Assembly (NCBI GenBank): GCA_963664305.2
Contig: CAXXLV010000002.1
Coordinates: 992,001-1,056,000, forward strand
Direction of reading: 5' to 3'
DNA length: 64,000 nucleotides
From: an uncultured Aliarcobacter sp.
GTDB taxonomy: Bacteria > Campylobacterota > Campylobacteria > Campylobacterales > Arcobacteraceae
The notes below the pieces were generated by a model. That model ran no database searches. It saw only the letters and a program-made list of their open reading frames with translations, and had not been told where the DNA came from. Below, one piece after another: positions 18,432-55,400 of this stretch. A program made the translations under genes and the position numbers. Each line of letters begins with the position of its first letter. Positions within the stretch are counted from its first letter, which is position 1.

Positions 18432-18460
18432 ATGGCACTAATAGACTTACAAAACACTTC
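18432..18460 (+). repeat. attL direct repeat
   Basis: atggcactaatagacttacaaaacacttc; first 25 bp identical and 28/29 overall to 33409-33437. Confidence 0.92.
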
Positions 18461-18587
18461 TACTAAAAGTTAGGTCTAGCCACTATTTTATCGATACTCT
18501 TAATAAAATTTATATAACTACTAATACTTAAAATTAAAAAGTATGATATATCATATGACACATGTAATTTCTTCATCAGGAGAAAAC

Positions 18588-20711
18588 ATGGCATATACAT
18601 ATTATTTTAAAGGTACTTACTACTTTAGAAAAATAATTCACAAAAAACACTTACCAAATAGAACACATAATTTAAATTATAGAAGAAGTTTAAGATTATG
18701 TATAAGTAAAGATTTTTATTACTATTTAGAAACTAATAAATTAGAATTAGATAAACTAACTGATTATATTAATTTAAACTTAACAAAAAAATTGAAAGAA
18801 GGTATATTTTTGGACACGATAGATATTAATCTTTACATAGATGAACTTTGTGAGAATTACAAAAAATTGGCAAATATTGAAAACTCTATTCTTGAAGAAA
18901 AAAGAATAAAAGATATGGAGTATATTGATAATGATGGCAAACTTCATGAAGGTTTTCATCTTCAAGCAATCACCATAAAATTTAAAGAACTTACATCTTT
19001 ATATAATGATGGATTAAGAGATACTGAAAAAATCCAAAGACTTGGATTAGAAATCGTAAAAAGGTCTAATATTCCATATGACAGAGTATTAAAAGAAATA
19101 CCAGCAGATAAATTAACAATTTTTTATGAAATGTTAATAAAAAGTGAAAAAGAAGTTCTTTGTAATGATATAAAAAGATATATTAAACGGAATCTATTCC
19201 AATTTTTTCAACTTATCCCCTCTTCTATAAAAGATGATAATGACAAAGTAGAACATGCATACAATGAATACTTGAATTTAGTTTTTGATAATCCAATACA
19301 AAAAAACTACTTAGAATTAATTCGTAAAAAAAGTTCTGTACCACAAATAACTAATGACAGTATTTTTAACCTTAATGATACAGACTTAATTGAAAAAATA
19401 AAAAAATCAATGGCTGAAGATGAAAAAGTAAAGGTTCTTGAATCTTCTTTAGATATTGATATTTTGATAGAAAAGTATATTAATTTTAAAAAATCTTCGG
19501 ATACAGTTCAAAAAAGACAAACTTTATCGCTAGGTTTATTTAAGGAATTCCTTCAAGGTAATGGAAATGAATATAAAGCTAAAAAGTTAGAAGATTTAAC
19601 AGAAGAAGATGTATCAAGTTTTGAGGAATTAATTGCAGAAGCAACTCCGAGAGATGAAAAACATTTAAAAAATAAAAACTTATATCAATTAGTTGAGTAC
19701 AGAAAAAAAACAAATGGTTTAAGATATTCAAAAAATACTTTAGAAATGACAGACTATGATATAAAAGATTTTTGGAAATATATATCAACAAAAATTAATA
19801 AAAATTTAGATTCAACATTATTTTCAGGATTTAATAGTCTATATCTTTCTGAATATAAAAAGCATGAAGAAAACAGTTTAGATAGACAATTAAGATGTTT
19901 TAAAAATACAGAATTACAAAACTATATAGATGTTATTTTTAATGAAAAAGATACTAAAAGAATTTTATTATCTTCGCCAAAAAACTTTTATTCATTCTTC
20001 TTTGCTTTTATGTATGGATTAAGGATTGGAGAATTCTCTTATATCAAGATGAGCGATATTCGTGTTCAAGAAGTTAATAATGAAAGAGTTTATTATATTT
20101 GGTTAAATGAAGATGTTAAACCTCAAAGTTTAAAAAATCAAAATGCCCATAGAAACATCCCTATTTCTAGTTTAATGATAAAACTTGGCTTTTTAAATTA
20201 TGTAGAAAAAAGATTAAAAAATAAAAAAGAATGGTTGTGGGATATACCTAAAAGTGGTTATGGAACAATAAACACTTTTCACCAAAGAAATATTCAGAAA
20301 TTATTCCCTGAAGCGGCAGATACAAAAGAAAACAAATTGAGAGTATTAAATGAAAATTCTACAAATGCAACTGAACTAAATGTAATTCAATTTAGATGTC
20401 TTAGAAAAAACTTTTCAGAATTTATTTTTTCAAAACACTTAGGAGAATATTATACTGGTGAAAATGCAAAAAGATTAATGGGGCATACAGAAGGAACTAC
20501 ATCAGGCGAATATCTTGGAAGAATCAATCCTTTTGAAGGTAAAAATATTTTAGATAATATTGATACATATGGTTTAGATTTTTCTAATTTACTTTTATAT
20601 GTAAAAAAATTTTATGGAACAATATTAACAGATTTATCTAATTTAAAAGATGAAAATAATTGGATGATTAAATCATATGTAAAACCTAAAAAAGGTCGTA
20701 AAATAAAATAA
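18588..20711 (+). CDS. tyrosine recombinase/integrase with DUF6538-like N-terminus
   Basis: GTYYFRK N-terminus; YGLRIGE, LKNQNAHRNIP, FRCLRKNF, LMGH, EY catalytic-box motifs; AGGAG RBS before 18588. Confidence 0.88.
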   Translation: MAYTYYFKGTYYFRKIIHKKHLPNRTHNLNYRRSLRLCISKDFYYYLETNKLELDKLTDYINLNLTKKLKEGIFLDTIDINLYIDELCENYKKLANIENSILEEKRIKDMEYIDNDGKLHEGFHLQAITIKFKELTSLYNDGLRDTEKIQRLGLEIVKRSNIPYDRVLKEIPADKLTIFYEMLIKSEKEVLCNDIKRYIKRNLFQFFQLIPSSIKDDNDKVEHAYNEYLNLVFDNPIQKNYLELIRKKSSVPQITNDSIFNLNDTDLIEKIKKSMAEDEKVKVLESSLDIDILIEKYINFKKSSDTVQKRQTLSLGLFKEFLQGNGNEYKAKKLEDLTEEDVSSFEELIAEATPRDEKHLKNKNLYQLVEYRKKTNGLRYSKNTLEMTDYDIKDFWKYISTKINKNLDSTLFSGFNSLYLSEYKKHEENSLDRQLRCFKNTELQNYIDVIFNEKDTKRILLSSPKNFYSFFFAFMYGLRIGEFSYIKMSDIRVQEVNNERVYYIWLNEDVKPQSLKNQNAHRNIPISSLMIKLGFLNYVEKRLKNKKEWLWDIPKSGYGTINTFHQRNIQKLFPEAADTKENKLRVLNENSTNATELNVIQFRCLRKNFSEFIFSKHLGEYYTGENAKRLMGHTEGTTSGEYLGRINPFEGKNILDNIDTYGLDFSNLLLYVKKFYGTILTDLSNLKDENNWMIKSYVKPKKGRKIK

Positions 20712-20720
20712 AATATCTTA

Positions 20721-21011
20721 TTTTTACCAACTCCAAATTCAGTGTATATATATTTCAATATTATCTCTAATATTAAATTATATACATTGTAATACATCTT
20801 AATTATATAACATTAATAATATTAAAATTATTTAAAATATAATAAAAGATGTGAATGTATTATCACTACAATATTATATTAATTAAGATAAGTTCAAACA
20901 TCTAAAGATATTATCACAATTTTAAATCTACAATTCAAAATTACAATATCAAACAATGAAAAACATTGCTTGTTAATTGTATTAATACACTTAATTTGGG
21001 ATTGGTAAAAA
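20721..21011. repeat. AT-rich segment bounded by 27-bp imperfect inverted repeats (candidate origin/regulatory region)
   Basis: 20721-20747 vs reverse complement of 20985-21011 match at 24/27. Confidence 0.65.
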
Positions 21012-21072
21012 ATTTCAAAATTTCTCAAAAAAGTTTGAAATGTAGTTAATTCCAAAATCATAAATACTTAAA

Positions 21073-21873
21073 ATGAATAGTAATACAAAAAAAAGGATTA
21101 CTATGAATTTACTTGCAGATATTATTTCAGATGAAGATTTTCTTAATTTTAAAGTTAATCAATTAAGAAGAGATTATGAAAATAGACTTTATAAAAAGAT
21201 TACTCAATACTCAATGATTGCAGTTGAAAGAAGAATCAGAGATAATGAAAAAATCAAAGATGCACTAAATAAAGAATGGGATGATAAATTAGAATTTAAA
21301 AAACCAAAAGAACTTCAAAACACTAAATTTTCTGATTGGTATATTAAACAACTAAAAAGCATTAAAACCAATTGGAAAGCTTTAGAAGATGCACTTATTG
21401 GAAAAGTTGCTAAGGAGTATTTACACCAAGTTGAAGGTAGATATTTTAAAGAGTTAAGAAAAGTATATAAAAAATTAAATCTTGAATTTTCAGATGAACA
21501 TACAAATTTTATTAGTGAACTAAGATTAGAATCAATGGTTGAAGATAATATCAAATGGTTAAAAAGACACTATAACTCTTTTAGAATGATTAAATCACAT
21601 AAAGCAATATATGATAAGGAATACTATTTAAATGTTACCAAAATCAAAAATAATATTGGTACAAGAGCCGATGCAAATAAAAAAATAGGAATTGATAAAG
21701 TTGATAAGAGTAAAACACTTGTACTAATTACAGCAATAAAACTAAATGAACAAAAAATCAAAATTACTATTTCAAGCATCACAAAAGAGATAGCTAAAAA
21801 TGGTTCAAAATCTTTAGGCAAAACACAAGTTGCAAAATATTTAAAATTACTAAGGGATGAAGGTCAAATATGA
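21073..21873 (+). CDS. hypothetical protein with C-terminal HTH (Rep-like)
   Basis: KITISSITKEIAKNGSKSLGKTQVAKYL resembles C-terminal HTH of plasmid Rep proteins; ATGA overlap with relaxase. Confidence 0.5.
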   Translation: MNSNTKKRITMNLLADIISDEDFLNFKVNQLRRDYENRLYKKITQYSMIAVERRIRDNEKIKDALNKEWDDKLEFKKPKELQNTKFSDWYIKQLKSIKTNWKALEDALIGKVAKEYLHQVEGRYFKELRKVYKKLNLEFSDEHTNFISELRLESMVEDNIKWLKRHYNSFRMIKSHKAIYDKEYYLNVTKIKNNIGTRADANKKIGIDKVDKSKTLVLITAIKLNEQKIKITISSITKEIAKNGSKSLGKTQVAKYLKLLRDEGQI

Positions 21874-23114
21874 AAGATTTCATTTCTGTTAGTTTAATGA
21901 CCCATTCAAAGGATTATATTTCACAAGTTGAAAGTCATAATATTAATAGAGAAGATATTGATTATTTATTGGATAAAGAGGATAGATTAGGCAACTATTC
22001 AGAAAGCTTTTCACCTGTTGAAGATGTAGTTCAAATTGTAAATGTAAGTGCTGGAACTTATGCAGAGAATTTAAAGAATTTTTATGCAAATTACAAAGCT
22101 AGTTCAAGAACTCTAAAAGATAATCTTGATTTTTTAGAAAGTGTTAGAAAATCTCAACAAAAAGAGAAAGGCTTCAAAGATAAACAAAAAAAACACTTGA
22201 TTGAATTTTCTGTGAACTTATCAGAAGAAAAAACAAAAGAGTATTTAAAAAATGGGGTAGATATAAAAGCTGGATTTCAACAATATGTAAAAGACTTAAG
22301 AAAAATGGGTATTCATACACTTCAATTAGATTTTCATACGGATGAAGGCTATTATAAAAACAATACTCATCATCATAATTTCCATGCCCATATAGTAGCT
22401 TATAACTATAACTTTAGCACAAAGAAAGCAATTGCATCAAATTTTAGGAAAAAAGATTATAGAAAACTTCAAACCCTTGCCCAAAATTCATTTAAAGCTG
22501 TTGGGCTTAATTATAAAAGGGGTTATAGTAAATTTATTACAAATAAAGTACATCTAAGAAGAGATGACTATATCCATGAACAAAAGAAAAAAGAGAAAAA
22601 TCTTTTATTTAAAGAAATAACTGCTTTACAAAAGGATTTACAGGAGTTAAAATCAAAAGTAGAACTTGAAGAGATTAATGTACAAGATTACCAAAAATGG
22701 AATGAAGAGATAAAATCTGGACTAAAAGATTTTATAAAATCACATACAATAAAAAATGATAATAAATATCAAATTAAGTCAATTAAAAGTTTTTATGATG
22801 AATTAGTTGACCTAGTTGATTATGTTTCAAATTTCGATATAAAATTAGAAGAGTTAGAAAAAGTAAGTTCAACAAATCAGATTTTAAAAGCAAAAATTGA
22901 ATCTTTAACAAAAGAAAAAGAACAATTTCTCAAAGCTTTAGAAAAACTTAAATTGTATGAAAGCAAGATTAAATCCTTAGTAGATAAAAAAGACACTTTA
23001 GAAGATGAAAACTATCAATTAATGCAGTATTTAAAAGATAAAGAATTAGAGGATGATTTTAAATCTTTTATTTCAAATTTAAAAAAATATAACTTGAATG
23101 ATATAGGTAGGTAG
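21870..23114 (+). CDS. MOBV (Mob/Pre) family relaxase
   Basis: SHNINR (motif I), IEFSV, FHTDEG...NFHAHIV (HxDE..HxH), LQT...GL..KRG, coiled-coil C-terminus. Confidence 0.8.
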   Translation: MKDFISVSLMTHSKDYISQVESHNINREDIDYLLDKEDRLGNYSESFSPVEDVVQIVNVSAGTYAENLKNFYANYKASSRTLKDNLDFLESVRKSQQKEKGFKDKQKKHLIEFSVNLSEEKTKEYLKNGVDIKAGFQQYVKDLRKMGIHTLQLDFHTDEGYYKNNTHHHNFHAHIVAYNYNFSTKKAIASNFRKKDYRKLQTLAQNSFKAVGLNYKRGYSKFITNKVHLRRDDYIHEQKKKEKNLLFKEITALQKDLQELKSKVELEEINVQDYQKWNEEIKSGLKDFIKSHTIKNDNKYQIKSIKSFYDELVDLVDYVSNFDIKLEELEKVSSTNQILKAKIESLTKEKEQFLKALEKLKLYESKIKSLVDKKDTLEDENYQLMQYLKDKELEDDFKSFISNLKKYNLNDIGR

Positions 23115-23223
23115 GGTTATTGTGTCGAACTTAGATTGTCAAGAGTTCTTGACCGAACAACTTTTTTTAAAAAGTTAGCCATTTTAATGGCGAAGTGAGC
23201 CAGACACAATAACCTACCCTACC
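23106..23223. other. multi-branched palindromic element (candidate oriT or single-strand origin)
   Basis: 12-bp closing stem 23115-23126/23203-23214 enclosing three perfect hairpins. Confidence 0.55.
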
Positions 23224-23348
23224 CAATGAATTCAAATATGAAGAAATATTACAAAATATATTGAAATAATTACTAGAAATATTAAATATATTATTAAAAA
23301 TACTTTACCTAACTTAAAATAGATTGTATCTATTATGAAAGGTATAAC

Positions 23349-23786
23349 ATGAGTGAATTAAAAAAAGTTGAACTTACTATAAATACAGATTTTTATTTAT
23401 GCAAGTTTGAAAATAAGACAAAATTAAGTTTAAAAAAAGAGTTTGTGGAAGCTGCAATAGCATCAAGCCATATTGAGAATTTAGTAATATTTTTAGCTAA
23501 TCAAGTATTTGAGGATGAAAACTTCTTCAAAAGACAAAAAGTAGTTGCATTAAGCAATCTAATCAAGGATTTAAAATCATATGTAAATGAGAGTGATAAA
23601 TACTCATTAAATCTGATTATAAAGAATTTAAAAAGCTATCACAAAATTGAAAAAGAGGATAAATACTTCATCTTAAAAGATGAAAAAATGTTTATCATTG
23701 AAGCACTTATCAAAGTTGCATTTAGTAGTTCTTTTAATCAAATTTTAAAAGATATGTATAAAATCAAATCAAAGGATGTAGCATGA
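23349..23786 (+). CDS. hypothetical protein
   Basis: 145-aa ORF with GAAAGG RBS. Confidence 0.7.
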   Translation: MSELKKVELTINTDFYLCKFENKTKLSLKKEFVEAAIASSHIENLVIFLANQVFEDENFFKRQKVVALSNLIKDLKSYVNESDKYSLNLIIKNLKSYHKIEKEDKYFILKDEKMFIIEALIKVAFSSSFNQILKDMYKIKSKDVA

Positions 23787-23965
23787 TTTTTTTAATAGTT
23801 AGTTTATTAAGAGATTACAAATATCAAATTACTGAAGAAAATTGTGTTCAGTTCATTAGAGATTTAATTGAAAGAATTGATGCTGAACAAATGGAACAAG
23901 TAAACAAAATCAAAGAGATGATTGAAAATGATAGAGAAAATCATCATGATGGGTTTGGAAGATAA
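23783..23965 (+). CDS. hypothetical protein
   Basis: AAGGA RBS, ATGA overlap with the upstream gene. Confidence 0.6.
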   Translation: MIFLIVSLLRDYKYQITEENCVQFIRDLIERIDAEQMEQVNKIKEMIENDRENHHDGFGR

Positions 23966-23971
23966 TAATTT

Positions 23972-24000
23972 AAAATAGAAGCATTTTAGCTTCTATTTTT
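23972..24000. terminator. bidirectional terminator
   Basis: aaaatagaagc-atttta-gcttctatttt between convergent ORFs. Confidence 0.75.
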
Positions 24001-24085
24001 TAGGAGGATTATTACCTCTTCCTCCTCCAGATGGATTTCCTGTTGTTGATGGTCCATTAGGTGGTCTAACTCCTGATTTTGCCAT
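23993..24085 (-). CDS. 30-aa Gly/Pro/Asn-rich peptide, not in ORF track
   Basis: MAKSGVRPPNGPSTTGNPSGGGRGNNPPKK; AAGGA RBS; every internal third codon position is A/T. Confidence 0.7.
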   Translation of the reverse strand: MAKSGVRPPNGPSTTGNPSGGGRGNNPPKK

Positions 24086-24121
24086 TGTGTTTCCTTTTAA
24101 ATTAAAATATTGAATTATCTA

Positions 24122-24313
24122 TTATTTGAATAATGGAAAATTCTCTAAAGGGTCGTAAGAAAATGGCTTTTCGTCAGAAAAACCAAAACCATAGTTACCT
24201 TTACCATAAACAGAAGATGAAGAAATAGAGTTTTTTGATTTTATATTATTATTGTTTTTTGATATACAAATTTTATTATTACTCACTTGATTTTTAGAGC
24301 CATTTTTTGACAT
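24122..24313 (-). CDS. 63-aa Ser/Asn/Lys-rich peptide
   Basis: GAAAGGA RBS; TATAAT at 24345-24350 on - strand. Confidence 0.6.
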   Translation of the reverse strand: MSKNGSKNQVSNNKICISKNNNNIKSKNSISSSSVYGKGNYGFGFSDEKPFSYDPLENFPLFK

Positions 24314-24371
24314 ATTATTTCCTTTCTCTTGTTTAGATAGGAAAATTATATAGGAGATTTTTAAGAAAAAA

Positions 24372-25697
24372 TTACCCTAAAGTTGATAATTTTTTAAAAT
24401 ATTCTGAAATAATATTTATACATTCTATTAGATTACTATTATTTTTTATTAATTCTACATATTCATCTAAATTTTTATCTATACCTCCCATAGATAATAG
24501 TGTTCCAAAATCTCTATCTAAATATTTATATTTTTCATTAAATAAAACTTTGTTTTCTATTTTTATAGCAATAATAAATCTTACAAAATTATTCGCACTA
24601 TTTATATTATGAGAATATAATTCTTCAGATGGAACATCTTTAATAATATTTAATAATTCTATATAGTCATTTTGATTTTTACATTTAGAAAAATTTTCTA
24701 TTATTAATTTTTTATTGGGAAATGTGATATTTATAGTTTTATTAGGGTAATTATAGTCAAAAAATTTATCCATTCTCAATTTTAATGTTGTTAATGTCTC
24801 AGAAATAGGTATTTTATCTATATTTTCAAAAGGAGGAAAACAAATAAGATATTCTTGCTGTAATTCTAATATTTGCTCTTCTGTATTTTTTAAATAATGT
24901 TCTCTCATAATACTTCTAAAAAATTCTAATTGTTTAATAAATTTTTTTTTATTATCTTCTACAATTTGGTATTCATTCTGAATATATAACAATCCTCTTA
25001 TTATTAACAATTGAATAAAAACTCCTATTTTTTCAGGAGTATGTCCTTTAGAGATAGTATTTAATATTACTAATATTTTAACAAAACTAGGAAATTCCTT
25101 ATTATTTTTCCATTTTGATAAATCCTTTTCAAAAGTAGAAAAACTAACTTCTTCGATAGAAACATTTTTTTTGCTATATGAATCATACATTTCTGAATTT
25201 TTATATGATAATTGAACTGCTAACTCTTTTTGTGTTTTTACTTTTGAAACTTGTTTGCATCTATTTAAAAAAGGCATAAGACTATTCTCTCTTAATGATT
25301 CATCAAACAAACTAATATCTATATTTTTAGAAATCATTTTTTCAATAATAAATCCAATCTGAAATGCAAACAAGTTTATATACATTTCATTCTCAAGAAT
25401 AGACTGTTTAAAAATTTTATAGTTATTAGATATATTAGTTATTTGATGTACATAAAATTGATTTAATTCATTATCTCCTAATAAATAATCAATAAAAAAA
25501 ATATGAAAGATATGTGATTCACGAGTTAATTGTTGTATATAATTTTCATTACTTAATAAATTATCATTTTTTAAAAAATTATTGTAAGCTTCTTCATCAG
25601 CTTGTTTATCTCGTTTTATTTTAAAAATATCTAATGGTTCAAATACTCTATGATTAACACCAAAAATATTCCAAAATACACTATTAAAATCTTTCAA
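24372..25697 (-). CDS. hypothetical protein with possible XRE-like HTH segment
   Basis: TQKELAVQL...STFEKDLSKWKNNKEFPS; TTG start with AAGGA RBS. Confidence 0.6.
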   Translation of the reverse strand: MKDFNSVFWNIFGVNHRVFEPLDIFKIKRDKQADEEAYNNFLKNDNLLSNENYIQQLTRESHIFHIFFIDYLLGDNELNQFYVHQITNISNNYKIFKQSILENEMYINLFAFQIGFIIEKMISKNIDISLFDESLRENSLMPFLNRCKQVSKVKTQKELAVQLSYKNSEMYDSYSKKNVSIEEVSFSTFEKDLSKWKNNKEFPSFVKILVILNTISKGHTPEKIGVFIQLLIIRGLLYIQNEYQIVEDNKKKFIKQLEFFRSIMREHYLKNTEEQILELQQEYLICFPPFENIDKIPISETLTTLKLRMDKFFDYNYPNKTINITFPNKKLIIENFSKCKNQNDYIELLNIIKDVPSEELYSHNINSANNFVRFIIAIKIENKVLFNEKYKYLDRDFGTLLSMGGIDKNLDEYVELIKNNSNLIECINIISEYFKKLSTLG

Positions 25698-25741
25698 TAT
25701 TTTTTATAATTCCTTTTTATTCTAAATCATTAAAATATTTA

Positions 25742-26959
25742 TTATGCTAACAGCGAAGTAATTTTTTCCCAATCAAAATTAAACCCTTTATTTCTTACAT
25801 AATATGAACCAGACTCTTTAAATACTAGCCCTAATTGTCCCCATAATTGAAATTCATTAGTAAATTTTTTTGCACCTTGTCCAGAAATCAAACCTTTTTC
25901 AATTAACTTTTCAATCACATTTTCTATTGCAATATCTCTATTATCAAAACCTTTATTTCTTGTATATTTTTCAATATCAAGAATTAAATCTAAATGTTTT
26001 CCTTCAATTAAAAGAATTTTAGCAACATAGTCATAAAATGTTCTACTTGTTGGTCCATGAATTTTACCAATTTTATGTAATTCATACCCAATTTCTGTCA
26101 AGTATCCGAATTCATCCCATGCTCCAATATGGTCAATAAAAGGAAAAAAGTTTTTTCTATATTGCCAATATGTAATATCTCCTGTTCCTTGTATATTTGT
26201 AGACACACTTAATTCATTTAAAGCTTCTTCTCTAGTTAAAATTCCATCTTCAATTTGTTTTTTCCATTTTGCTAGTTTTTTTTTCATTGGTTTATATTTT
26301 TCACCGTTAACTAACTGAATTTCACTTTCATACTCTTCAAATTGATTTCTATATTGTTCTGGATATACATATTCTAAAAAAAATTTATTCCATATGTTTC
26401 TTTTTCTATCACCCTCATCATCAATCTTGTAAGATATATCCAAAAGTACCCATAAAGCATGTAATGGTAAATCAATCCATTTTGCCCAATATCTACCAGA
26501 CTGTGCTTCACTTAAAGTTAATTGTCCAATATTAATTTCAACTGTAGGCTCTTTATGAATTAAAATATTCGTTGGATTCTGATAATCGTATACAACTAAT
26601 GCAACAGGCATTTTATTTTTAATATTTTCTTCATATATCCTATCCATATATGTTCCCATATCAAAATGTTCTACTCGAGATGGAATAGCTAGATAAGATA
26701 ATGAATGTTTATCTAAATAAGCAATTGATTGTCCTAAACCAGTTAATATACCTCTTTTTGTTTCAGTAGGAGGCTTAAACTCTAATGCAGAAGAAAAATT
26801 ATTCGAAGGGTCAAAAAAAGTTCCATCAGGAGAAGGAAAATTACTTTCACTTTTAGTTAAAAAAACTCCATTAGATAAAATCTGAGAATCCCCATCAATT
26901 TTCCATTTAGCAAGTAAAGTTTCAATTACTTGCTTAGCCATATTATCATGTGCAGTCAT
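25742..26959 (-). CDS. putative restriction endonuclease, PD-(D/E)xK
   Basis: SPDG-x11-LEFK then GQSIAY; TAATG-coupled to the methyltransferase. Confidence 0.7.
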   Translation of the reverse strand: MTAHDNMAKQVIETLLAKWKIDGDSQILSNGVFLTKSESNFPSPDGTFFDPSNNFSSALEFKPPTETKRGILTGLGQSIAYLDKHSLSYLAIPSRVEHFDMGTYMDRIYEENIKNKMPVALVVYDYQNPTNILIHKEPTVEINIGQLTLSEAQSGRYWAKWIDLPLHALWVLLDISYKIDDEGDRKRNIWNKFFLEYVYPEQYRNQFEEYESEIQLVNGEKYKPMKKKLAKWKKQIEDGILTREEALNELSVSTNIQGTGDITYWQYRKNFFPFIDHIGAWDEFGYLTEIGYELHKIGKIHGPTSRTFYDYVAKILLIEGKHLDLILDIEKYTRNKGFDNRDIAIENVIEKLIEKGLISGQGAKKFTNEFQLWGQLGLVFKESGSYYVRNKGFNFDWEKITSLLA

Positions 26960-29196
26960 TAGTTTTCCTTTTCAGAACTAGTAATTAATGAATATTTTGC
27001 TAAGTTACTTAAATTATCTTCTTTCCAATTATTCTGTATTGTTTTAGAAATAGCATTGGCAATACTTTCAGCCGCTAAGGGAGGAAATGCATTACCAACT
27101 TGAATACATTGTTGTCCTTGAGGTCCAAAGAATCTAATACTATCAGGAAATGACTGAATCCTTGCTGCTTCTCTTATTGTTAATTGTCTATGTAACCACG
27201 GATGTATTGGAAATGCGCTATGTCCTGGTACAATTGTTGGACTTGGAGAATTTCTATCTAACCTAAAAAAAACTTTACTAAAACTCTTTATTTCTTTGCC
27301 TGTTTTACTATATTTTAAATGCTCTGGCAAGACTGTAGGATTAATTTTCTTACCTTCTTCAATGTATGAAAATCTTTCCTTTACATCCTCAGAATGATTC
27401 ATTGGCATATGACTTTTTAAATCACAATATGTACTATCACATGATAGGTCACTAATTACTTCATTAATTGTCCGATATGGTTTTTGCCAATCTTTTGGCT
27501 CTTTATAGTACTTAGGTTTTGGCCATGGAATAATATTTCCAGTTCTATTTGCTATTAATATAAACCTTTTTCTAGTTTGTGCTACTCCATAATCTGCTGT
27601 ATTAATTATCTTAAAATCATGGTTTTTATATCCTAATTCTTCAATTTCATTAATTAAATATTTCAAGAAAAAACCATCATCCAAATTTGTAAATCCAGCA
27701 ACATTTTCCATTACAATCCACTTTGGATTAAGTTCTTTAATATAATCTACAAAAGTATAAACAAGTTTATTTCTAGGGTCTAAATGGGGGTCATAATCTT
27801 TATCTGTATTTTTAAACCTTCTTTTACCAAACATCGAAAAACCTTGACAAGGAGGACCACCAACAAGTACATCTATAGTTTCATTTTTTTTCAATTGTTT
27901 TTTAACAATAGAAATTAATTCTTCTTTATTTTTAGATAAAGATAAATCTCCTTTTATAAAAGGTATTTCAGGAAAATTATATTGATGAGTTTTTGCTGCA
28001 AAATCATTTATATCAGAACTTACAAGAGGTTTTATCCCTGCATTTTTAAATCCAAGAGTAATACCTCCTGCTCCACAAAATAAATCTACACAAGTTAATT
28101 CTTTTTTTGTGTTTTTTGATTTTAAATTATTTCCAAAAGGATTATTTGTTAATAAAGTATTCTTTTTTATTAATAAATGTTTTTCCTTGTAATCAGTATT
28201 CTCTTTCTCTAAATGACTAAATATCGATTGTGCTAATCTTGCACCTAATAATGGAGGTACGGCATTGCCAACCATAATACATTGTCTTCTTCTATCTCCT
28301 GTAAAAATAAATGAATCTGGAAATGACTGAATCCTTGCTGCTTCTCTTGGTGTTAAACTTCTATTTTCTGTAGGATGAATAGGAAAAGCATTATTTCCAG
28401 GAACCATAGTGGGAGAAAAATCTTCTCTATGCAATCTATTGTATGTATTTCCAAAATTTTTTCTTCTAATATCTTCTGGCAATTCTTCTGGAGGAGGTAA
28501 TTTACCTCCTTCTGGTATTAATTTATATCTTCTTATCACTATTTCACTATGACTTAAAATTAAATGGTTTGGAAAACCATCTTTTTCTAATAAATCCATA
28601 ATTGCTTCACCTACATTTTTTTTAGGTATTAAAGCCCCAACACTTACCTCTTTCTTTTCTGGATAAAAATATGGATTATCCAATTTAGTTCCAACAATAA
28701 TAACCCTCTCTCTTTTTTGAGGGATTCCATAATCTGAAGCATTCAAAATATTAAAATAAATGTTATATCCAATAGAAGCAAATGAATTTGCAATATCAAC
28801 AAGATATTTACCTCCAAACATTGATTTAATACCTTTAACATTTTCAAAAACAAAACATTTTGGTTCTAAATCTTTTACTAATCTAACATATGCTTCAAAT
28901 AATAAATTTCTAGGGTCGCTAGAATTTTTATCACCCATAACTGAGAAACCTTGACAAGGAGGTCCACCTATTATTACATCCGGTTTTATATTATTTGTTT
29001 GTTCAAGTATTTCTTTTGCTGTAATTGTTCTTATATCTTTATTTATGAATGGAATGTTAGGATAATTGTAGTTATATGTTCTTTTACATTCTGCTTCAAT
29101 ATCTGATGCACAAATTATATTAAATCTACCATCTTCTTTAAATCCTATATCCAAACCCCCAGCTCCGGTAAATAATGAAACCACATTATATTTCAA
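26959..29196 (-). CDS. double-domain DNA cytosine-5 methyltransferase
   Basis: two full motif sets: LFTGAGG/GGPPCQGFS/ENV/Q.RER/GNAV and LFCGAGG/GGPPCQGFS/ENV/Q.RKR/GNAF. Confidence 0.93.
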   Translation of the reverse strand: MKYNVVSLFTGAGGLDIGFKEDGRFNIICASDIEAECKRTYNYNYPNIPFINKDIRTITAKEILEQTNNIKPDVIIGGPPCQGFSVMGDKNSSDPRNLLFEAYVRLVKDLEPKCFVFENVKGIKSMFGGKYLVDIANSFASIGYNIYFNILNASDYGIPQKRERVIIVGTKLDNPYFYPEKKEVSVGALIPKKNVGEAIMDLLEKDGFPNHLILSHSEIVIRRYKLIPEGGKLPPPEELPEDIRRKNFGNTYNRLHREDFSPTMVPGNNAFPIHPTENRSLTPREAARIQSFPDSFIFTGDRRRQCIMVGNAVPPLLGARLAQSIFSHLEKENTDYKEKHLLIKKNTLLTNNPFGNNLKSKNTKKELTCVDLFCGAGGITLGFKNAGIKPLVSSDINDFAAKTHQYNFPEIPFIKGDLSLSKNKEELISIVKKQLKKNETIDVLVGGPPCQGFSMFGKRRFKNTDKDYDPHLDPRNKLVYTFVDYIKELNPKWIVMENVAGFTNLDDGFFLKYLINEIEELGYKNHDFKIINTADYGVAQTRKRFILIANRTGNIIPWPKPKYYKEPKDWQKPYRTINEVISDLSCDSTYCDLKSHMPMNHSEDVKERFSYIEEGKKINPTVLPEHLKYSKTGKEIKSFSKVFFRLDRNSPSPTIVPGHSAFPIHPWLHRQLTIREAARIQSFPDSIRFFGPQGQQCIQVGNAFPPLAAESIANAISKTIQNNWKEDNLSNLAKYSLITSSEKEN

Positions 29197-29310
29197 TCTG
29201 ATACACCTTTCTACTTATATTAACTCTGATAAATTAAAGATTGTATCGAAAATCTACTATTTTCCTCTTTAAATTCTTAAATGCTCGTTTAGTTATCATA
29301 GTAGCCAAAA

Positions 29311-29775
29311 TTAATTGGCTATTTTTTCTTTTTCTTTAGTTCTTACAGTTTCACAACCATATTTTGATTTAATATCATCAAGTGATTTTTCTTTAGGGTT
29401 TCGCCCTTTCATTTCTCCATAGTACCACATCTTTTTTTTAGATGCCCACTTAAAATTTAATTCCTTAAGATTATCTTTAATTGACTTTGTATCACCACTT
29501 AACCATATCCAAGAACCAACGACTTCAATAACAATATTTTCAAAATGTAAAATCTGAGAAATGATTTTTTCTATTTCTAAATCAAATTTAAATTCATTTG
29601 AAAAGTTGATTTTATTTTCAATTATGTTTGTATAAATACTATTTAACATTTTAAAAAGTTCATCAGAACCACCAACATCTGGATGTAATTTCTTTGCTAG
29701 TTGCTTATATATCTTTTTAGCTTCATTAATCCCTTCTATTCCTTTAAATTGCTCTTCTATTTGTGAATGTGTCAT
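29311..29775 (-). CDS. J-domain (DnaJ-like) protein of mobile-element type
   Basis: YKQLAKKLHPDVGG plus GSWIWLSGDT...LKELNFKW..KKKMWY C-domain. Confidence 0.8.
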   Translation of the reverse strand: MTHSQIEEQFKGIEGINEAKKIYKQLAKKLHPDVGGSDELFKMLNSIYTNIIENKINFSNEFKFDLEIEKIISQILHFENIVIEVVGSWIWLSGDTKSIKDNLKELNFKWASKKKMWYYGEMKGRNPKEKSLDDIKSKYGCETVRTKEKEKIAN

Positions 29776-29837
29776 TTTGTCTTTCCTTTAAAAAATTTAC
29801 CTTTTTTGAAGATTTTTGAGGGGATTGTCTTTATCTT

Positions 29838-30094
29838 CTTTTTAATTTTAGAAAATAAAAACACCTCTTCAATCTTTTTAAGGTTTTACCTCTTTCGTTA
29901 GTTTCATCGGGTTTTTGTAGGAATGTAGTGATTGAATTTTTACTTAGAATAAAATATAAAGTAGGCATAGTTTTATTTTAGTATCAGTAAAGAATTTAAT
30001 AAAATGAAATGAGAAAAAAACTGAAATTAATGAGAGAGTTTTAAAAAGTTTTTGAAGTTGTTTTGTTTTAGTTGTTTTAACAAAGATTAAAAAG
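29838..30094 (+). promoter_or_regulatory. long strand-specific hairpin, candidate ssDNA (Frpo-like) promoter
   Basis: nested stems with G.T pairs on + strand; TAAAAT (30000-30005) sits in a mismatch bubble. Confidence 0.55.
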
Positions 30095-30185
30095 TCATAT
30101 TAAAAAATAGGCTATTTTGATATTTTTAGAAAAAAAGCCTTCCATTTAAGGGGTCATTTTGGCACGAAATGAAGTATCTGTATAT

Positions 30186-30226
30186 AAAACATCACAGAAA
30201 AACAAGTGTTTTCTATGGTGTTTTAT
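30186..30226 (-). terminator. hairpin downstream of 30256-30849 ORF
   Basis: taaaacatcacagaaaa-acaagtg-ttttctatggtgtttta. Confidence 0.45.
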
Positions 30227-30255
30227 GCTTATATTAAGTTATTAGAAATTTTATT

Positions 30256-30849
30256 TTATATAGATTCTCTAAAAATATTGAACAAATGCTCCAAGTCTAA
30301 ATTATCCTCGTTATCTAAAAACTCTCTTACATGATGTTCATAGATTATAGATGATAATTCAGAATACAAATCATATTCATATTCACTTAATTCATCTATG
30401 AATTTTTTAAGTTCAATCGTTTGTCTTAAAGAACTCTGCATATTTGAGTTTATTTTTTTTCCTATCTTTTGAAGTTGATGCAACTCATCTTTTAAGTAAA
30501 ATTCATTACTACAATCATCTATACAAAAGTGTCCAAGATGAAAAAATGAATCGTTAATATAGTCTTTTAAAGTCATATTCTTAGAATAATTACCTGATTT
30601 AATTTCATCTTCTAATTCATTGCTATAATTAACAATATATTTAGGGAAGGAAAAGTATTCAACATTTTTATTTTGAGAATACTCATTTCTTTGCATACAC
30701 CATACTTCATTAGTTTCCAAATCAATAGCAACTTTATGCCCATATTGGAAACTAGAATAACCTCCATTTTCAATTATATTTGTTAACCACTCTGCAGTAA
30801 AATATTTTTTGAAGTTATCTGCAATAACTTCCATATTTAAATTTTCCAT
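30256..30849 (-). CDS. hypothetical acidic protein
   Basis: 197-aa ORF, AAGG RBS, 9 bp after the methyltransferase stop. Confidence 0.7.
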   Translation of the reverse strand: MENLNMEVIADNFKKYFTAEWLTNIIENGGYSSFQYGHKVAIDLETNEVWCMQRNEYSQNKNVEYFSFPKYIVNYSNELEDEIKSGNYSKNMTLKDYINDSFFHLGHFCIDDCSNEFYLKDELHQLQKIGKKINSNMQSSLRQTIELKKFIDELSEYEYDLYSELSSIIYEHHVREFLDNEDNLDLEHLFNIFRESI

Positions 30850-30858
30850 TTTAAACCT

Positions 30859-32067
30859 TTATTTAATTTTTTTTAATATTGCAACAAAAATTGCTTCTAA
30901 CTTTTGTACAACAATCGAATTTCCAGCCATCATTTGGATATTTGTTTTACTCATTCCAATCTCTTTTAATTTGTCATAAGTAGAACTTTCAAATCCCATT
31001 AGTAATAGCTGCTCCCTACATGATAAGAACCTATAAGGTGCCTTATCTCCATTAATATTTATATTTTCCTCCTTATTATTAAGATTTATTACTTTTCCAT
31101 TTTCATCACAAAACAGAATTCCGGCATTGGGCCATCTATCTTGCTTTGTAGTAATTGTTTGGCAATATTCCCTATCATTTAATTTTTTGGATTTTTCAAT
31201 CCATGTAATTCTGCTAGGGGTAAGGTTTGGCATTACCTCTTTATACTCATCAATTAATTCATCATTATCTAAATCTAAAAAGTCATGAATTGAAGGACAA
31301 GTTTCATTTTTCTCAACTTCAATTTCTTTTATTCCATCAAGTTGAGAAATACAGAAAAATCTTTCCCTTGATTGAGGAATAAAATCTTTTGCATTTAAAA
31401 CCATTGTTGAGTTTTTATAACCAAGACTTTCAAGAAACTCTGCAAATTCATTCCATCCATCAATATGTTTTTTTGATAGAATATTTTTTACATTTTCACA
31501 AAGTAAAAATTTTGGTAATCTTCCCAATAATTTCAACTCATTAAGTAATCTCTTTACTTCTAAAAGCAATCCTGAACTAGTACCTTCTTTTATCCCTTCC
31601 CCACTCCCAATACTTGAAAGATTTTGGCAAGGAAAAGAGTAAGTAAAGATGTCAATTTTTGGTAAATCTTTACCTTGAATATCAGCAATACTTCCAAAGT
31701 TTTTAGTTCTTTTTAATGCAATATAAATCTGTCTAACTTTTTCAAAAGATAGTTTTTTTATTTCTACTTTAGTGCATGGATTTTTGCTATCTTTTGATAA
31801 AGTAAATTTAAATAAATATTTCAACATCACTTTTTTAGTAAGTGATTTATATTTTGGAAAATCCTCTTGTGAACCAAAATTTAATTTGTCATAAGAGATA
31901 ATTGCATCAATAAACCATTCACTAATACCAATGTTTTTTAATTCAAATTTATTTGGATTAATTCCTATGGCTTTTAATAGTTCTTTATTATTTAATATAT
32001 TTTTCATTGCTGTAATTTGTGAACCAATTCCAGAAAATGCTTCAAATAGTTTAATAAACCTACTCAT
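30859..32067 (-). CDS. orphan DNA cytosine-5 methyltransferase (M.SssI-like scaffold)
   Basis: FEAFSGIGSQ, SEWF, TLSKDSKNP insert, TYSFPCQ, SGLL, ENV, PQSRER, AGNSIVV. Confidence 0.9.
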   Translation of the reverse strand: MSRFIKLFEAFSGIGSQITAMKNILNNKELLKAIGINPNKFELKNIGISEWFIDAIISYDKLNFGSQEDFPKYKSLTKKVMLKYLFKFTLSKDSKNPCTKVEIKKLSFEKVRQIYIALKRTKNFGSIADIQGKDLPKIDIFTYSFPCQNLSSIGSGEGIKEGTSSGLLLEVKRLLNELKLLGRLPKFLLCENVKNILSKKHIDGWNEFAEFLESLGYKNSTMVLNAKDFIPQSRERFFCISQLDGIKEIEVEKNETCPSIHDFLDLDNDELIDEYKEVMPNLTPSRITWIEKSKKLNDREYCQTITTKQDRWPNAGILFCDENGKVINLNNKEENININGDKAPYRFLSCREQLLLMGFESSTYDKLKEIGMSKTNIQMMAGNSIVVQKLEAIFVAILKKIK

Positions 32068-32203
32068 AATAAACCTCGTATTTATGGATATTTGAGTGGC
32101 ATTCTAGTAATATAACTATCGGCAATCTTGTTGGATTTTTAATTTAAAAGGATTAATTGTTATAATTGATTTATTTATTTATTTAAAAAAAAGAAGGAGT
32201 ATT

Positions 32204-33184
32204 TTGGCTAAAGAAATTACCAATGAAGAGGATATGTTTAGAGAGATTTTAAAGTATTTTCTAACTACACAAAAAACTGATAGTCAAAAAAATTTAAGAA
32301 AAAAATATTGTAAAGAGAATTCAACTTTATTAGAGTATTTTCGTAGAGCATGGACGATTTATTCCGTACTAGAAATTATTGTAGATGATAAAATTAATAT
32401 TATTTATAAAAATTCTACAACTTTAGAAATATCAAAAGTCAATTATATAATCGACTTAATATATGATTCTATAAGAAGATTTCAATATGAATATAAAACA
32501 ATGCATCCAATTTTAGATTCTTCAAATTTGAAAAAATCTCGCTATACATTAAAAAGTGATGAAGATATAAAAAATGAGTTTAAAGTGAAAGGAACAGGAA
32601 ATGAAGAAGAAAGAATAGAAGCAGATATAATAATAAAAGAAATAATTGAATATAAAAATGAAATGATGATTAGTTTAAATCAATTAAAAAGTTCCATATC
32701 CAATATCTTAAATAGGACTATTAATTCTTCACTTGAATATATTCCTGATACAAATTATAAAAATATACCTAATCCAATTTATGTTGAAAACCATCCAACT
32801 AATCGTTATGTTTTTAAAGATGTACTTTATAAAATTTTGAAAGATGATGATTGTATTAAGGTAAATGATACACAATATATTTCAGATGCTGATATTTTAG
32901 AAATAATTGAACAATACAATGGAATAAAAGGCTATATTAATTCCGATACATATAGTAGGAACCATATCTTAATGACAACTTTAGATTTTCTTAAAGCTTT
33001 AGACATAATAAAAGATTCAAAAAATCCATATGAGGTTGTTCCATTTAAAGATAGAGAATGGAAATTAGATGCTTTAACTAAAGTTGATACAATCGAAAAA
33101 ATTTTAAAAAACTTGGATAAAGTCAAAACATTAACAAAAGAACAGAAAAAATATGTTTATGAAATATTCCAATTTACTTTTTAA
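32204..33184 (+). CDS. hypothetical protein
   Basis: 326-aa ORF, AAGGAG RBS, TTG start, TATAAT at 32161-32166. Confidence 0.7.
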   Translation: MAKEITNEEDMFREILKYFLTTQKTDSQKNLRKKYCKENSTLLEYFRRAWTIYSVLEIIVDDKINIIYKNSTTLEISKVNYIIDLIYDSIRRFQYEYKTMHPILDSSNLKKSRYTLKSDEDIKNEFKVKGTGNEEERIEADIIIKEIIEYKNEMMISLNQLKSSISNILNRTINSSLEYIPDTNYKNIPNPIYVENHPTNRYVFKDVLYKILKDDDCIKVNDTQYISDADILEIIEQYNGIKGYINSDTYSRNHILMTTLDFLKALDIIKDSKNPYEVVPFKDREWKLDALTKVDTIEKILKNLDKVKTLTKEQKKYVYEIFQFTF

Positions 33185-33408
33185 ATGTAAAAGTTCAAAA
33201 TCAATATATAACCATAATTTAGATACTATACACACTTTAAAAAATTAGAAATTATGTGTGGTTATGGAAGTATGACATATTTTAAAAAATATGACACAAA
33301 AAAATATTTTCCATAAAAGTATGATACAAAAAAGCAAATTTTAAGCAAAAAACATAACTACTAATTATATAAATAAAGCACCATTATATGGGGAGTATAT
33401 AAAATTAA

Positions 33409-33437
33409 ATGGCACTAATAGACTTACAAAACATTTC
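33409..33437 (+). repeat. attR direct repeat (5' end of the ABC-F gene)
   Basis: atggcactaatagacttacaaaacatttc. Confidence 0.92.
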
Positions 33438-52476: not shown

Positions 52477-55400
52477 TTAAAAACTAATTCCAAATGTTAC
52501 ACTTCCAGAATATCCTTGGAATTTACCATCTTTACTTCTATCATAATCCATATCAAATATTAAACTTGTTGAATCAGAAATTTTTGTTTCAAGTCCTAAT
52601 CCAACGTTATACATTGTTTTATTTAATTCAGTAACTGGTGTAACAAACTCTTTTCCACCACCAACATATTGTGCTTTTATATCAGCACTATTATCTCCAA
52701 ATGAGTTATATGCACTAACAGATAATTGAGGAATAAGTAATGTATCTTCTAATTCTATATTTGAAGTAAGTTTTGCTCCAAGTTCAACTGTACCACGATT
52801 TAATTTTAAACCATCAACTTTTAAAGCATCATTTTGATAAGTTGTTCCTTTTTCAGTATAACCTTTTTGGTTTAGTAAACTATATTCTAAAGATGCAAAT
52901 GGTGTTAAAGAGACACCATCATTAACAGGAATTGTATATCCTGTTTCAACTTTTGCAGAAATTTGTTCTGCATCAACACTTGAAGTTAATTTACCAGAAT
53001 TTGCCGTTCTTGTTCCATCTGTTTTATGTTTTGCATAAGATAAATAAGTATCAACATATGCATTTTCAAATGCTGAAGATGAATAAATTGTTCCTTGAAT
53101 ACTTGTTGTATCTGAACTATCTGATGCAGCATTTTCTTGATTTGTTTTAGTTGTAGAATAAGCAAGTGCTGCTCCAAAAATTGTTCCATCACCTGAAATT
53201 TTATCCATACCACCTACAAAACCATATGTTGAAGTATTAAATCCATAATATTCATCAACTTGATCTTGTGTAGCTTTTCCAGCCATTCCTTTTAACCAAA
53301 ACGATGTATCAAAACTATAATAATCTCCTGAAGATAATCCTGTTCTATATAAAGTAGGAGTAAAATTATTCATTTCACCCGTTCTAATATCAGATAATCT
53401 TCCTTTTATAGTTGTCATTGCTAAGTTTGATGCAGTAATTGATGTTTGCATATTTGAACTATTTGCAATAGGAGCAAGTTTTCTTTGAGTCTCAATCATC
53501 TCTTGTTTTTTAGCTTCACTTAAAACTGTTCCACCTTCTAAATACTCTAATTCATTGATAATTTGTGCTAGTGCACCTGCTCTATCAACTCCATTTGCAT
53601 AATCTGCAAGTGCTTGAGAAGCACCATTTGAATAATCTTTCCCTATTTCAGATTTTTCTATATATAAATCTTCTGGATTAAATGAACCATTATTTGTTCT
53701 ATCAGCAACTAATACTAAATTATTATCTTTAAATACAACCTTACTGTCTATGATACTATTATCAGAAACTTTACCATTTGCTTCATTTCCTTCAGTATAT
53801 GTTCCAGTTGAACTATTTGCACTAATTAAATTATATTCATATTTACCTGCCAAAGTTCCATTATAATCGATATGAACTTTTATATCATCTTGAATATCTA
53901 AACTATTTGCATCTATACTTCCTGATGTATCATTTGCAACAGCTTGCCCAGCTATTAAATCCGATGTATCAATTTCGAATTTAAGTGTAGAGTTTGATGC
54001 TAAAACGATTCCATTTTCAACTGTAATATCATGATTATTAACATCTAAAACAGAATTACTACTAACATTTAAATTTCCATAGAATGTCATATCTGATGTT
54101 AAATTTGCAGTTGTTTTATTTGAACTATTTCCTATTGTTATATCATTTGCATAAATATCTTTATTTATATTTTGAGTATATGAATTTGAAGCTGTACCAA
54201 CTGTTCCAAAATTCACTTCTTTTAATCTAAATAAATCTTCTCCAATATCTGTATATAAAGTTGTTGTACCTTCAAAATTAATTGTACCCTGTCCATTATT
54301 TGCAGTTGTTATTGCAAGAGGAGTAGTTGAAACTATTATTGATTTTGTATTAGCAACATTTACTGTTCCATCATTATCAAAAACTAAATCTCCATATAAA
54401 TTACCCTCAAGATTTACTATTCCATCTCCACTAACATGGAATGTACTCTCTTTTACATACACATCATTTTTAAAGGTAACTGTTTCTCCAGTAACTCCTG
54501 CATATATACTTTCAAATGTAGAATTTCCTGCTGTGTTTCCACCTAAAACTCCATAAACAGTTGAAGAGCCATTAAATCTTAATATTGCATTATTTGCATT
54601 TGCAAATTGAATTCCAGATGTTCCCGTTGTTAAGTTTACATTATCACCTATTTCAAGAGTTCCTGTAGATGAGCCAAAATCAACAGTTCCTTTCATTCCT
54701 TCTGCATTAGAAGCATTATCCCCATTTAAAACAACTGTTCCATTATCTGAATATTTTAAAGTAGAAGCATATACCATACCATCAAAAGTTACTGTTTCAC
54801 CAGTAACACCAGCGGTTATACTTTCTAAATTATTAGTACTTGTTCCTACATCACCTGTTACAGTTGAACTTCCCTCAAATACTACATTACCTGTATTTGC
54901 AGTCATTGTTGCAATAATCAAACTATCAGTTATATCAGTATTTGTTACATTTGCATTATCAGCTAATGTTAAAGTTGCATTATTATATAAATTTATAATA
55001 TCTGCAAAAATTTCTCTACGTGCCAATAAACCATTTGAAGTTACAGTACCACTTCCATCTTTATCTTGTTCATCATTTGTATTTACATTTAATTCATTTA
55101 TACCTAAACCTGAACTTCCTATAATACCATCAATTACACCATCACCTTTATAGTTTAATATTCCTGTATTATTTGCTAAAGTTTGTACAGAACCAAGAAG
55201 TCCTCCACCTGAATCTAAAATACCCATTCCATCAGCTACATTTACAATTGCATCAAAACCAGAAAAATTAATATTTCCAGTTAGATTTCCATTTAGATTA
55301 GCTGTTCCATCACTTTCAAATACTATGTTTGAAACATAAACATCATTTCCAAAAGTTACAACTTCTCCTGATGCACCTTGTAATGTTATCTCTTTTAATA

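Follow-up and report, generated by a model that had tools for sequence, protein, structure and literature searches.

The island and its genes

The window, by which we mean the whole stretch of 64,000 nucleotides analysed in this work, contains an integrated island of ~15 kb (18432-33409) in a low-GC stretch of the chromosome. The island is bounded by a 25-nt att repeat that coincides with the start of an ABC-F gene. In seven of the nine relatives examined, the ABC-F gene lies within ~170 nt of the left flanking gene, i.e. directly after it, and the integration site is therefore empty in these. The sequence of the window is confirmed by DNA contigs of sequencing runs, and 5-15% of its words are present in RNA-labelled runs, which were compared as contigs only. 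The main features are as follows.

18432..18456, + strand: att repeat, left copy, at the start of the ABC-F gene
18543..20711, + strand: probable tyrosine integrase, inferred from motifs read from the translation
21870..23114, + strand: HUH mobilisation protein (HxDEG...NxHxH), a relative of a Bacteroides mobilization protein (hhalign 99.1%)
23180..23205, + strand: predicted oriT, a short inverted repeat followed by GAAGTGAG/CC
25742..29196, - strand: cargo R-M block
25742-26959, - strand: probable type II endonuclease, cargo
26959-29196, - strand: double C5 methyltransferase, cargo
29300..29323, + strand: terminator-like hairpin with a T tail on the + strand only
29311..29775, - strand: J-domain protein of 154 aa, with an N-terminal J domain (PF00226, below the cut-off) and an invariant HPD
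29776..29828, - strand: conserved leader and ribosome-binding region, between the hairpin base and the start codon
29829..30103, + strand: conserved hairpin of ~270 bases, putatively of single-stranded DNA (ssDNA), rod-shaped, interrupted by internal loops and bearing a side mini-hairpin; the 5' arm is the template and the 3' arm the non-template arm
33409..33433, + strand: att repeat, right copy, at the start of the intact ABC-F gene

The island contains a probable integrase, a mobilisation protein, a type II R-M pair, a J-domain gene and a second methyltransferase, and the best reading of it is an integrative mobilisable element. The integrase (18543..20711) has no match in Pfam or NCBIfam.

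Some further observations concern the surroundings. Between the integrase and a 266-aa gene there is a second long inverted repeat (20721-21011, DNA folding z -5.2 on the + strand and -6.7 on the - strand), possibly an origin or another ssDNA signal. In L215 (9000-18100; L-numbers, e.g. L022 or L121, denote the homologous loci that we compared) a different element is also inserted where the same ABC-F gene begins, which suggests a possible hotspot for such islands. Besides the hairpin with ardA, the L215 element has a methyltransferase-like gene and a gene homologous to the 197-aa one of the window (30256-30849). Further along the window, a 2225-aa ORF (52477-59154) with a run of ~273-nt repeats and periodic antisense ORFs (56037-57947) looks like a repetitive surface or secreted protein.

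The hairpin in the window

An earlier note on this DNA described a nested hairpin upstream of the J-domain gene. We checked its pairing base by base, and all of the named stems are present. From the base upwards these are 29838-49/30083-94 (11 Watson-Crick pairs and one G.T), 29867-72/30052-57 (six Watson-Crick), 29874-81/30041-48 (eight Watson-Crick), 29890-906/30022-38 (14 Watson-Crick and three G.T, the same count as given before), 29931-38/29993-30000 (seven Watson-Crick and one G.T) and 29939-44/29986-91 (six Watson-Crick). The apical stem pairs TAGAATAAAA (29945-54) with TTTTATTTTA (29971-80) through nine Watson-Crick pairs and one G.T. The TAAAAT hexamer at 30000-05 had been placed in a bubble, which is incorrect: it pairs with 29922-27 at four of six positions, and the bubble comes after it.

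Folded as DNA, the + strand reaches -28.5 kcal/mol (z -2.98, with one of 200 shuffles as good) and the - strand -22 (z -1.54), so that the comparison of strands against shuffles proposed earlier favours the + strand in this copy. The difference is larger for RNA folding, with -55.4 (z -3.69) for the + strand and -27.6 (z -1.02) for the - strand. Judged by energy alone, the window copy is unusual only to a moderate degree, as 21 of 201 sampled intergenic stretches from the same genome reach z <= -3. It has 60 pairs that span more than 100 nt; none of the 201 intergenic controls reaches 60 (median 7), in a comparison where the ends of the hairpin were chosen and those of the controls were not.

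Within its family the window copy may be weak or partly decayed. It has lost the outermost stem, its side loop is not GNA, and it has at least one G.T where 32 of 36 aligned copies have G-C. In the run that included the homologues its DNA folding z of -1.8 is the second weakest of 36, with a median of -7 for the homologues. No second copy of the hairpin was found in its own genome.

A smaller hairpin nearby, 30154-61/30165-72 (seven Watson-Crick pairs and one G.T), is real, but it lies outside the block that is kept in the homologues and was rejected as a part of the element. Its GCA triloop on the + strand is a DNA-type loop, without conservation in the homologues.

Homologues and covariation

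Close homologues of the hairpin locus come from records titled Arcobacteraceae or Sulfurimonas, the latter with full copies of the hairpin (L070, L077). Within the family, 38 of 184 genomes have hairpin homologues and 40 of 184 have close relatives of the J gene. A search with one query of 361 genomes from other families gave a single short match. Upstream (310 nt) of distant J-domain genes on four plasmids, from Enterobacter, Salmonella, Bacillus and Clostridium, no comparable template-strand hairpin was found (z -0.8 to -2.1).

Our alignment, A2, holds 36 full copies out of 44 unique upstream regions, with a mean column identity of 58%. Four loci were left out since the hairpin is not directly upstream (L054, where it stands before RadC, L068, L069 and L075), and four since their copies are partial or divergent (L019, L048, L060 and L093). 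The 50 pairs of the eight helices are formed in 93.0% of 1790 cells across the 36 copies, while slid registers pair at 42-56%. Two-sided changes are found in 23 of the 50 pairs, a count that none of 500 shuffles reaches. The compensatory change that the earlier note had suggested looking for is thus present, with the proviso that the aligned sequences are related, so that these counts overstate the number of independent events, and that the helices were partly drawn from the same sequences. RNAalifold recovered only part of the rod from the full alignment; the helices were therefore set by hand and then counted.

Some variation is confined to groups of copies. Seven loci (L020-L023, L044, L056 and L062) share a conserved apical insertion of 55-70 nt with a small hairpin of its own, and the same group has a fully paired CACACT at the -10 position. 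Just past the 3' end of the hairpin a motif recurs in several loci, and sub-threshold matches to Flavo-1 lie there in L070 (9542-9616) and L056 (540-606). Rfam has no match anywhere in the window, its hairpin included, and none to the hairpin in five homologous loci, the three sub-threshold matches all being outside it.

Which strand folds, and as what?

A hairpin can be written on either strand, and G.T mismatches on one strand are A.C mismatches on the other. We therefore folded the copies with Watson-Crick pairs only, which favours neither strand, and counted the 1x1 mismatches. The fold of the strand that is the template of J has 32 G.T and 5 A.C. When the other strand was folded in this way the counts were 33 and 5. 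G.T exceed A.C in 18 sequences, and the reverse is true in two. The wobbles had been assigned to the + strand, the template of the downstream genes, on the basis of the window copy, and this holds across the copies. Judged from these sequence comparisons, the fold is that of the + strand, the template of the next gene. Folding z-scores show no strand preference, the + strand being better in 19 of 36 copies. Raw energy is lower for the + strand in 35 of 36, for which G+T content may be partly responsible.

The side mini-hairpin gives some indication of the nature of the nucleic acid. It is found in 34 of 36 copies, and its helix is paired in 100% of cells with two-sided change in all three pairs. 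Its loops are GNA in 20 copies, GATA in six and another sequence in eight, including the window copy, with no GNRA loop in any; the remaining two copies have no hairpin. GNA triloops alone form a DNA mini-hairpin, and the RNA counterpart is much less stable (PMC13037366). According to the same source, GNA and GNNA mini-hairpins are far more stable as DNA and are found at the ssDNA initiation sites of G4, ssiA and N4. The GNA and GATA loops, without any GNRA, favour folded DNA over RNA.

Proposed promoter anatomy

The features within the hairpin that resemble those of a promoter are listed below, together with the side mini-hairpin.

29922..29927, + strand: template-arm bases that pair with the -10 hexamer, except at its -10 and -8 positions
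29977..29982, + strand: -35-like TTTAGT, 17 nt before the -10 hexamer
30000..30005, + strand: -10 hexamer TAAAAT on the non-template arm, with invariant -11A (30001), -9A (30003) and -7T (30005)
30006..30015 opposite 29917-29921, + strand: unpaired bubble, just before the predicted start
30072..30083, + strand: side mini-hairpin with a covarying 3-bp stem and, in the window copy, a TTTA loop

The three bases -11A, -9A and -7T are kept in all 36 aligned copies and in all 16 further copies. The -10 helix is paired in 75% of cells; in the seven cells where the -11 or the -9 pair is broken, the 3' arm keeps its A every time. A polymerase that recognises the -10 hexamer on the 3' arm would use the 5' arm as its template and proceed towards the J gene, with a start that we place at template position ~29915-29916. 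After the bubble, more stems follow down to the leader.

The -35 region is less well defined. A TTTAGT-like sequence lies 17-18 nt from the -10 hexamer in many copies, not in all, and its helix is a weaker one (78.6% paired, weak covariation). TTTAGT resembles the -35 motif of Campylobacter jejuni, TTTAAGTnTT, which is itself poorly conserved in that species (PMC3824568).

The complement of the template arm also carries -10-like sequences in most copies (TACAAT, TACATT, CACACT), although it has none at the aligned position in L064, L121, L170 and L222. The - strand of the window further has a plain TTGAAG-16-TAAAAT (29872-29845). These sites mean that the region may also be active as duplex DNA.

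The genes behind the hairpin

What does the hairpin precede? We compared 50 hairpin rows, which include duplicates and come from loci mostly found via the J protein. In 47 of these 50 rows, biased as they are, a start codon with a leader and a ribosome-binding site lies 36-100 nt from the hairpin base, and the next gene is J in 43. Elsewhere the hairpin precedes RadC-JAB genes (L121, L170, L190), ardA (L187 and L189; PF07275, E 9e-18 and 3e-18), a gene for a 194-aa protein without assignment (L134, L135) and a small membrane ORF (L132, L171). The copies in L220 and L217 have no gene behind them. The hairpin thus heads different genes in different elements.

The C-terminal part of the J protein is a small alpha/beta domain, for which fold comparison gave no assignment, the match lists being filled by the J domain. 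The protein (29311-29775) has a full-length structural relative in a Fusobacterium phage. By sequence it has relatives in 2,688 plasmid records, of which 2,209 are conjugative. A five-member family annotated as DnaJ is listed among the unknown leading-region families in the supplement of PMC11541004; its likeness to our J protein is one of annotation.

A link between the hairpin and the double methyltransferase had also been suggested, and this turns out to be incidental. The gene after J varies, with a C5 methyltransferase in that place in two of 43 hairpin-J rows, and a conserved coupling of the hairpin to the R-M operon was rejected. No U-tailed terminator for the J mRNA was found on the - strand, so read-through from J into the methyltransferase is possible, without being a conserved feature.

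The predicted transferred strand

The mobilisation protein (21870..23114) has HUH motifs that are conserved in its family. It has no match in Pfam or the PDB, Mob_Pre/MobM included, and a single-sequence model was too poor (pLDDT 45.6) to give a useful fold match. The arrangement of the related Bacteroides mobilization gene, beside cfxA, is presumably that of Tn4555, and the Bacteroides locus has the same nick core upstream of its gene. In all 12 loci of the relaxase family of the window, a WAGTGNG motif is present at a distance of 61-267 nt from the relaxase ORF, in most cases preceded by a short inverted repeat. The island has a single site of this kind, at 23193 on the + strand, which leads us to predict a nick between 23199 and 23200 of that strand. 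The reading of the hairpin as an ssDNA promoter would suffer if the - strand were transferred; the nick-like site lies on the + strand, as far as prediction can tell. The window and L121, the two elements with a motif as well as a hairpin, carry the motif on the hairpin strand, despite opposite directions of their relaxase genes. In the related loci, the nick-like site is found upstream or downstream of the relaxase and on either strand. The predicted oriT itself sits inside a larger cloverleaf (23094-23235, z -7.1) downstream of the relaxase gene.

Other elements point mostly the same way. Six distinct elements have a PF03432 relaxase (L112, L114, L124, L132 with its duplicate L133, L134 and L135), and in these the order is relaxase, accessory gene, cargo, hairpin, with the hairpin on the template strand of the relaxase. 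By the geometry of F and RP4, we take this to be the transferred strand. Relaxases usually enter the recipient last (PMC11541004). Altogether, nick-like motifs and gene geometry place the hairpin on the predicted transferred strand in eight of 11 relaxase-linked elements. No nick could be placed in L215 or L216. In L220, which has a TrwC relaxase and no gene behind the hairpin, the hairpin is on the relaxase coding strand, apparently the opposite one. Most hairpin loci have no relaxase within the stretch of DNA examined, and in the replicase-type elements (PF03090; L120, L127 and L131) rep has its coding sequence on the hairpin strand.

The hairpin is absent from ten further loci with a relaxase of the window's family (L172-L181), which indicates that it is an accessory cassette. 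The window hairpin lies 6.6 kb behind the predicted nick of its 15-kb element, compared with about 0.6-3.3 kb in the homologues; this late entry results from the R-M cargo between nick and hairpin.

A candidate function and its rivals

We consider it likely, on comparative sequence grounds, that the hairpin is an ssDNA promoter through which the adjacent gene is expressed early, just after transfer. The covariation, the strand asymmetry, the invariant -10 bases of the 3' arm and the presence of the same hairpin before ardA support this idea as four independent lines of comparison. The earlier note had proposed such a promoter on the template strand, pointing at the J gene; the fold, the strand, the -10 arm and the ardA context agree with it, and the role itself stays a candidate. 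In the sequence of events that we envisage, the island would excise and the relaxase would nick the + strand near 23199. The + strand would then enter the recipient 5' end first, where the hairpin would fold, its paired arms rebuilding a -35/-10 pseudo-duplex followed by a ready-made bubble. Host sigma-70 RNA polymerase could start near 29915 and copy the 5' arm towards the J gene, until the fold is lost to second-strand synthesis and expression ends. The same RNA might also prime second-strand synthesis, as has been proposed for Frpo.

This last step can be taken further. If the hairpin were mainly a single-strand origin, a primer made by a polymerase or primase would serve to turn the ssDNA into duplex, with the next gene's transcription as a secondary effect. 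The literature treats Frpo as both a promoter and a primer site (PMC11541004), primase sites of G4 and ssiA bear GNA mini-hairpins (PMC13037366), the hairpin strand is the rep coding strand in the replicase elements L120, L127 and L131, and the copies in L220 and L217 have no gene to express. What speaks against it is the leader, ribosome-binding site and start codon found 36-100 nt away in 47 of 50 rows, a sample biased via J, together with a cargo that includes ArdA. Priming is in our view unlikely to be the main role, and it is the chief rival to the ssDNA promoter or else a second function of it.

That the inverted repeat is instead regulatory, as the structured leader or cruciform of an ordinary promoter in double-stranded DNA, would fit the -10-like hexamers on the - strand (29927-29922 and 29850-29845). 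In 11 of 36 copies, however, the last position of the outer TAAAAT is A instead of T. The invariant -10 bases belong to the arm which, in duplex DNA, points away from the gene. Neither a cruciform nor an mRNA leader would favour template-strand G.T by 32 to 5, and the - strand RNA folds poorly (z -1.0). We judge such a promoter to be quite improbable. A non-coding RNA from the + strand, either an antisense RNA or a 6S-like rod with a central bubble, would yield the same asymmetry through G.U wobbles and has a good RNA fold (-55.4, z -3.69). Yet the side hairpin has GNA or GATA loops, with no instance of GNRA, the hairpin has no counterpart in Rfam, and neither a promoter nor a terminator was found on the + strand around it, so that we give this explanation very little credence.

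Comparison with known systems

The best-known ssDNA promoters, Frpo and ssi, are long stem-loops on the transferred strand that rebuild -35 and -10 boxes upstream of establishment genes (PMC9849209, PMC11541004, PMC12672017). Frpo has been described as a promoter and as a primer site (PMC11541004). The enterobacterial ssDNA promoters form three non-homologous classes, and those of classes 2 and 3 in pESBL, one of them in front of ardA, have start sites mapped by 5' RACE (PMC12672017). General context is provided by PMC8708921, PMC5704250 and PMC4993578.

Our hairpin shares the long stem-loop with class 1, i.e. Frpo1 and Frpo2 of F and ssi1-3 of ColIb-P9/pESBL. It differs in having no sequence similarity to these, in being AT-rich, in its Campylobacterota-type -35 and GNA-capped side hairpin, and in its location on small integrated elements, whereas Frpo and ssi are on conjugative plasmids. 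The description 'Frpo-like' in the earlier note is therefore apt for the proposed mechanism and not for the sequence. Searches of plasmids and phages with blastn gave no match to the hairpin, nor did the window hairpin and L022 match anything in PLSDB (72,556 plasmids), the plasmid set through which the lack of a match to Frpo/ssi is inferred. Hence the hairpin is probably a new class rather than a member of Frpo. Classes 2 (ardA, klcA) and 3 (M.EcoGIX) of pESBL include non-homologous hairpins that drive ardA, the gene that our hairpin heads in two elements; those classes are enterobacterial, and no sequence match connects them to the present one.

GNA- or GNNA-capped mini-hairpins are common to our element and to the G4 origin, RSF1010 ssiA and the phage N4 promoter (PMC13037366). 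The latter are read by primase or a phage polymerase, whereas the -10 signature here points to host sigma-70. The predicted oriT recalls the MOBV oriT of pMV158, in which an inverted repeat is likewise followed by AGTGNG at the nick (PMC3105389). In contrast to pMV158, our site lies downstream of the relaxase gene, whose product is nearer to Bacteroides mobilization proteins than to MobM.

A literature search, in which few subscription journals were covered, found no such element described in Campylobacterota, and the readable supplements of PMC11541004 contain no mention of Arcobacter or Campylobacter.

Implications

The ssDNA promoters tested in the literature cited here are all from enterobacterial conjugative plasmids. 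We can tentatively propose, as a possibility that we hold to be well short of probable, that the hairpin is a portable cassette for zygotic expression, common to unrelated mobile elements of the Campylobacterota (three or four relaxase types plus replicase elements), and as such a fourth class of ssDNA promoter. The J protein, its usual cargo, would be an establishment factor not recognised so far, exchangeable for ArdA and RadC-JAB, and would recruit the DnaK of the recipient against a defence or DNA-processing target minutes after transfer.

Some uses of these results follow. The hairpin can serve as a search handle, since any gene that follows it becomes a candidate for a role in anti-defence or establishment, and the alignment supplies natural compensatory variants for direct work on structure and function. 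The comparison also puts a J-domain protein that is widespread on plasmids into the same slot as ArdA. If the proposal is true, zygotic expression from ssDNA would have arisen again, beyond large plasmids, on small integrated elements that borrow their transfer machinery.
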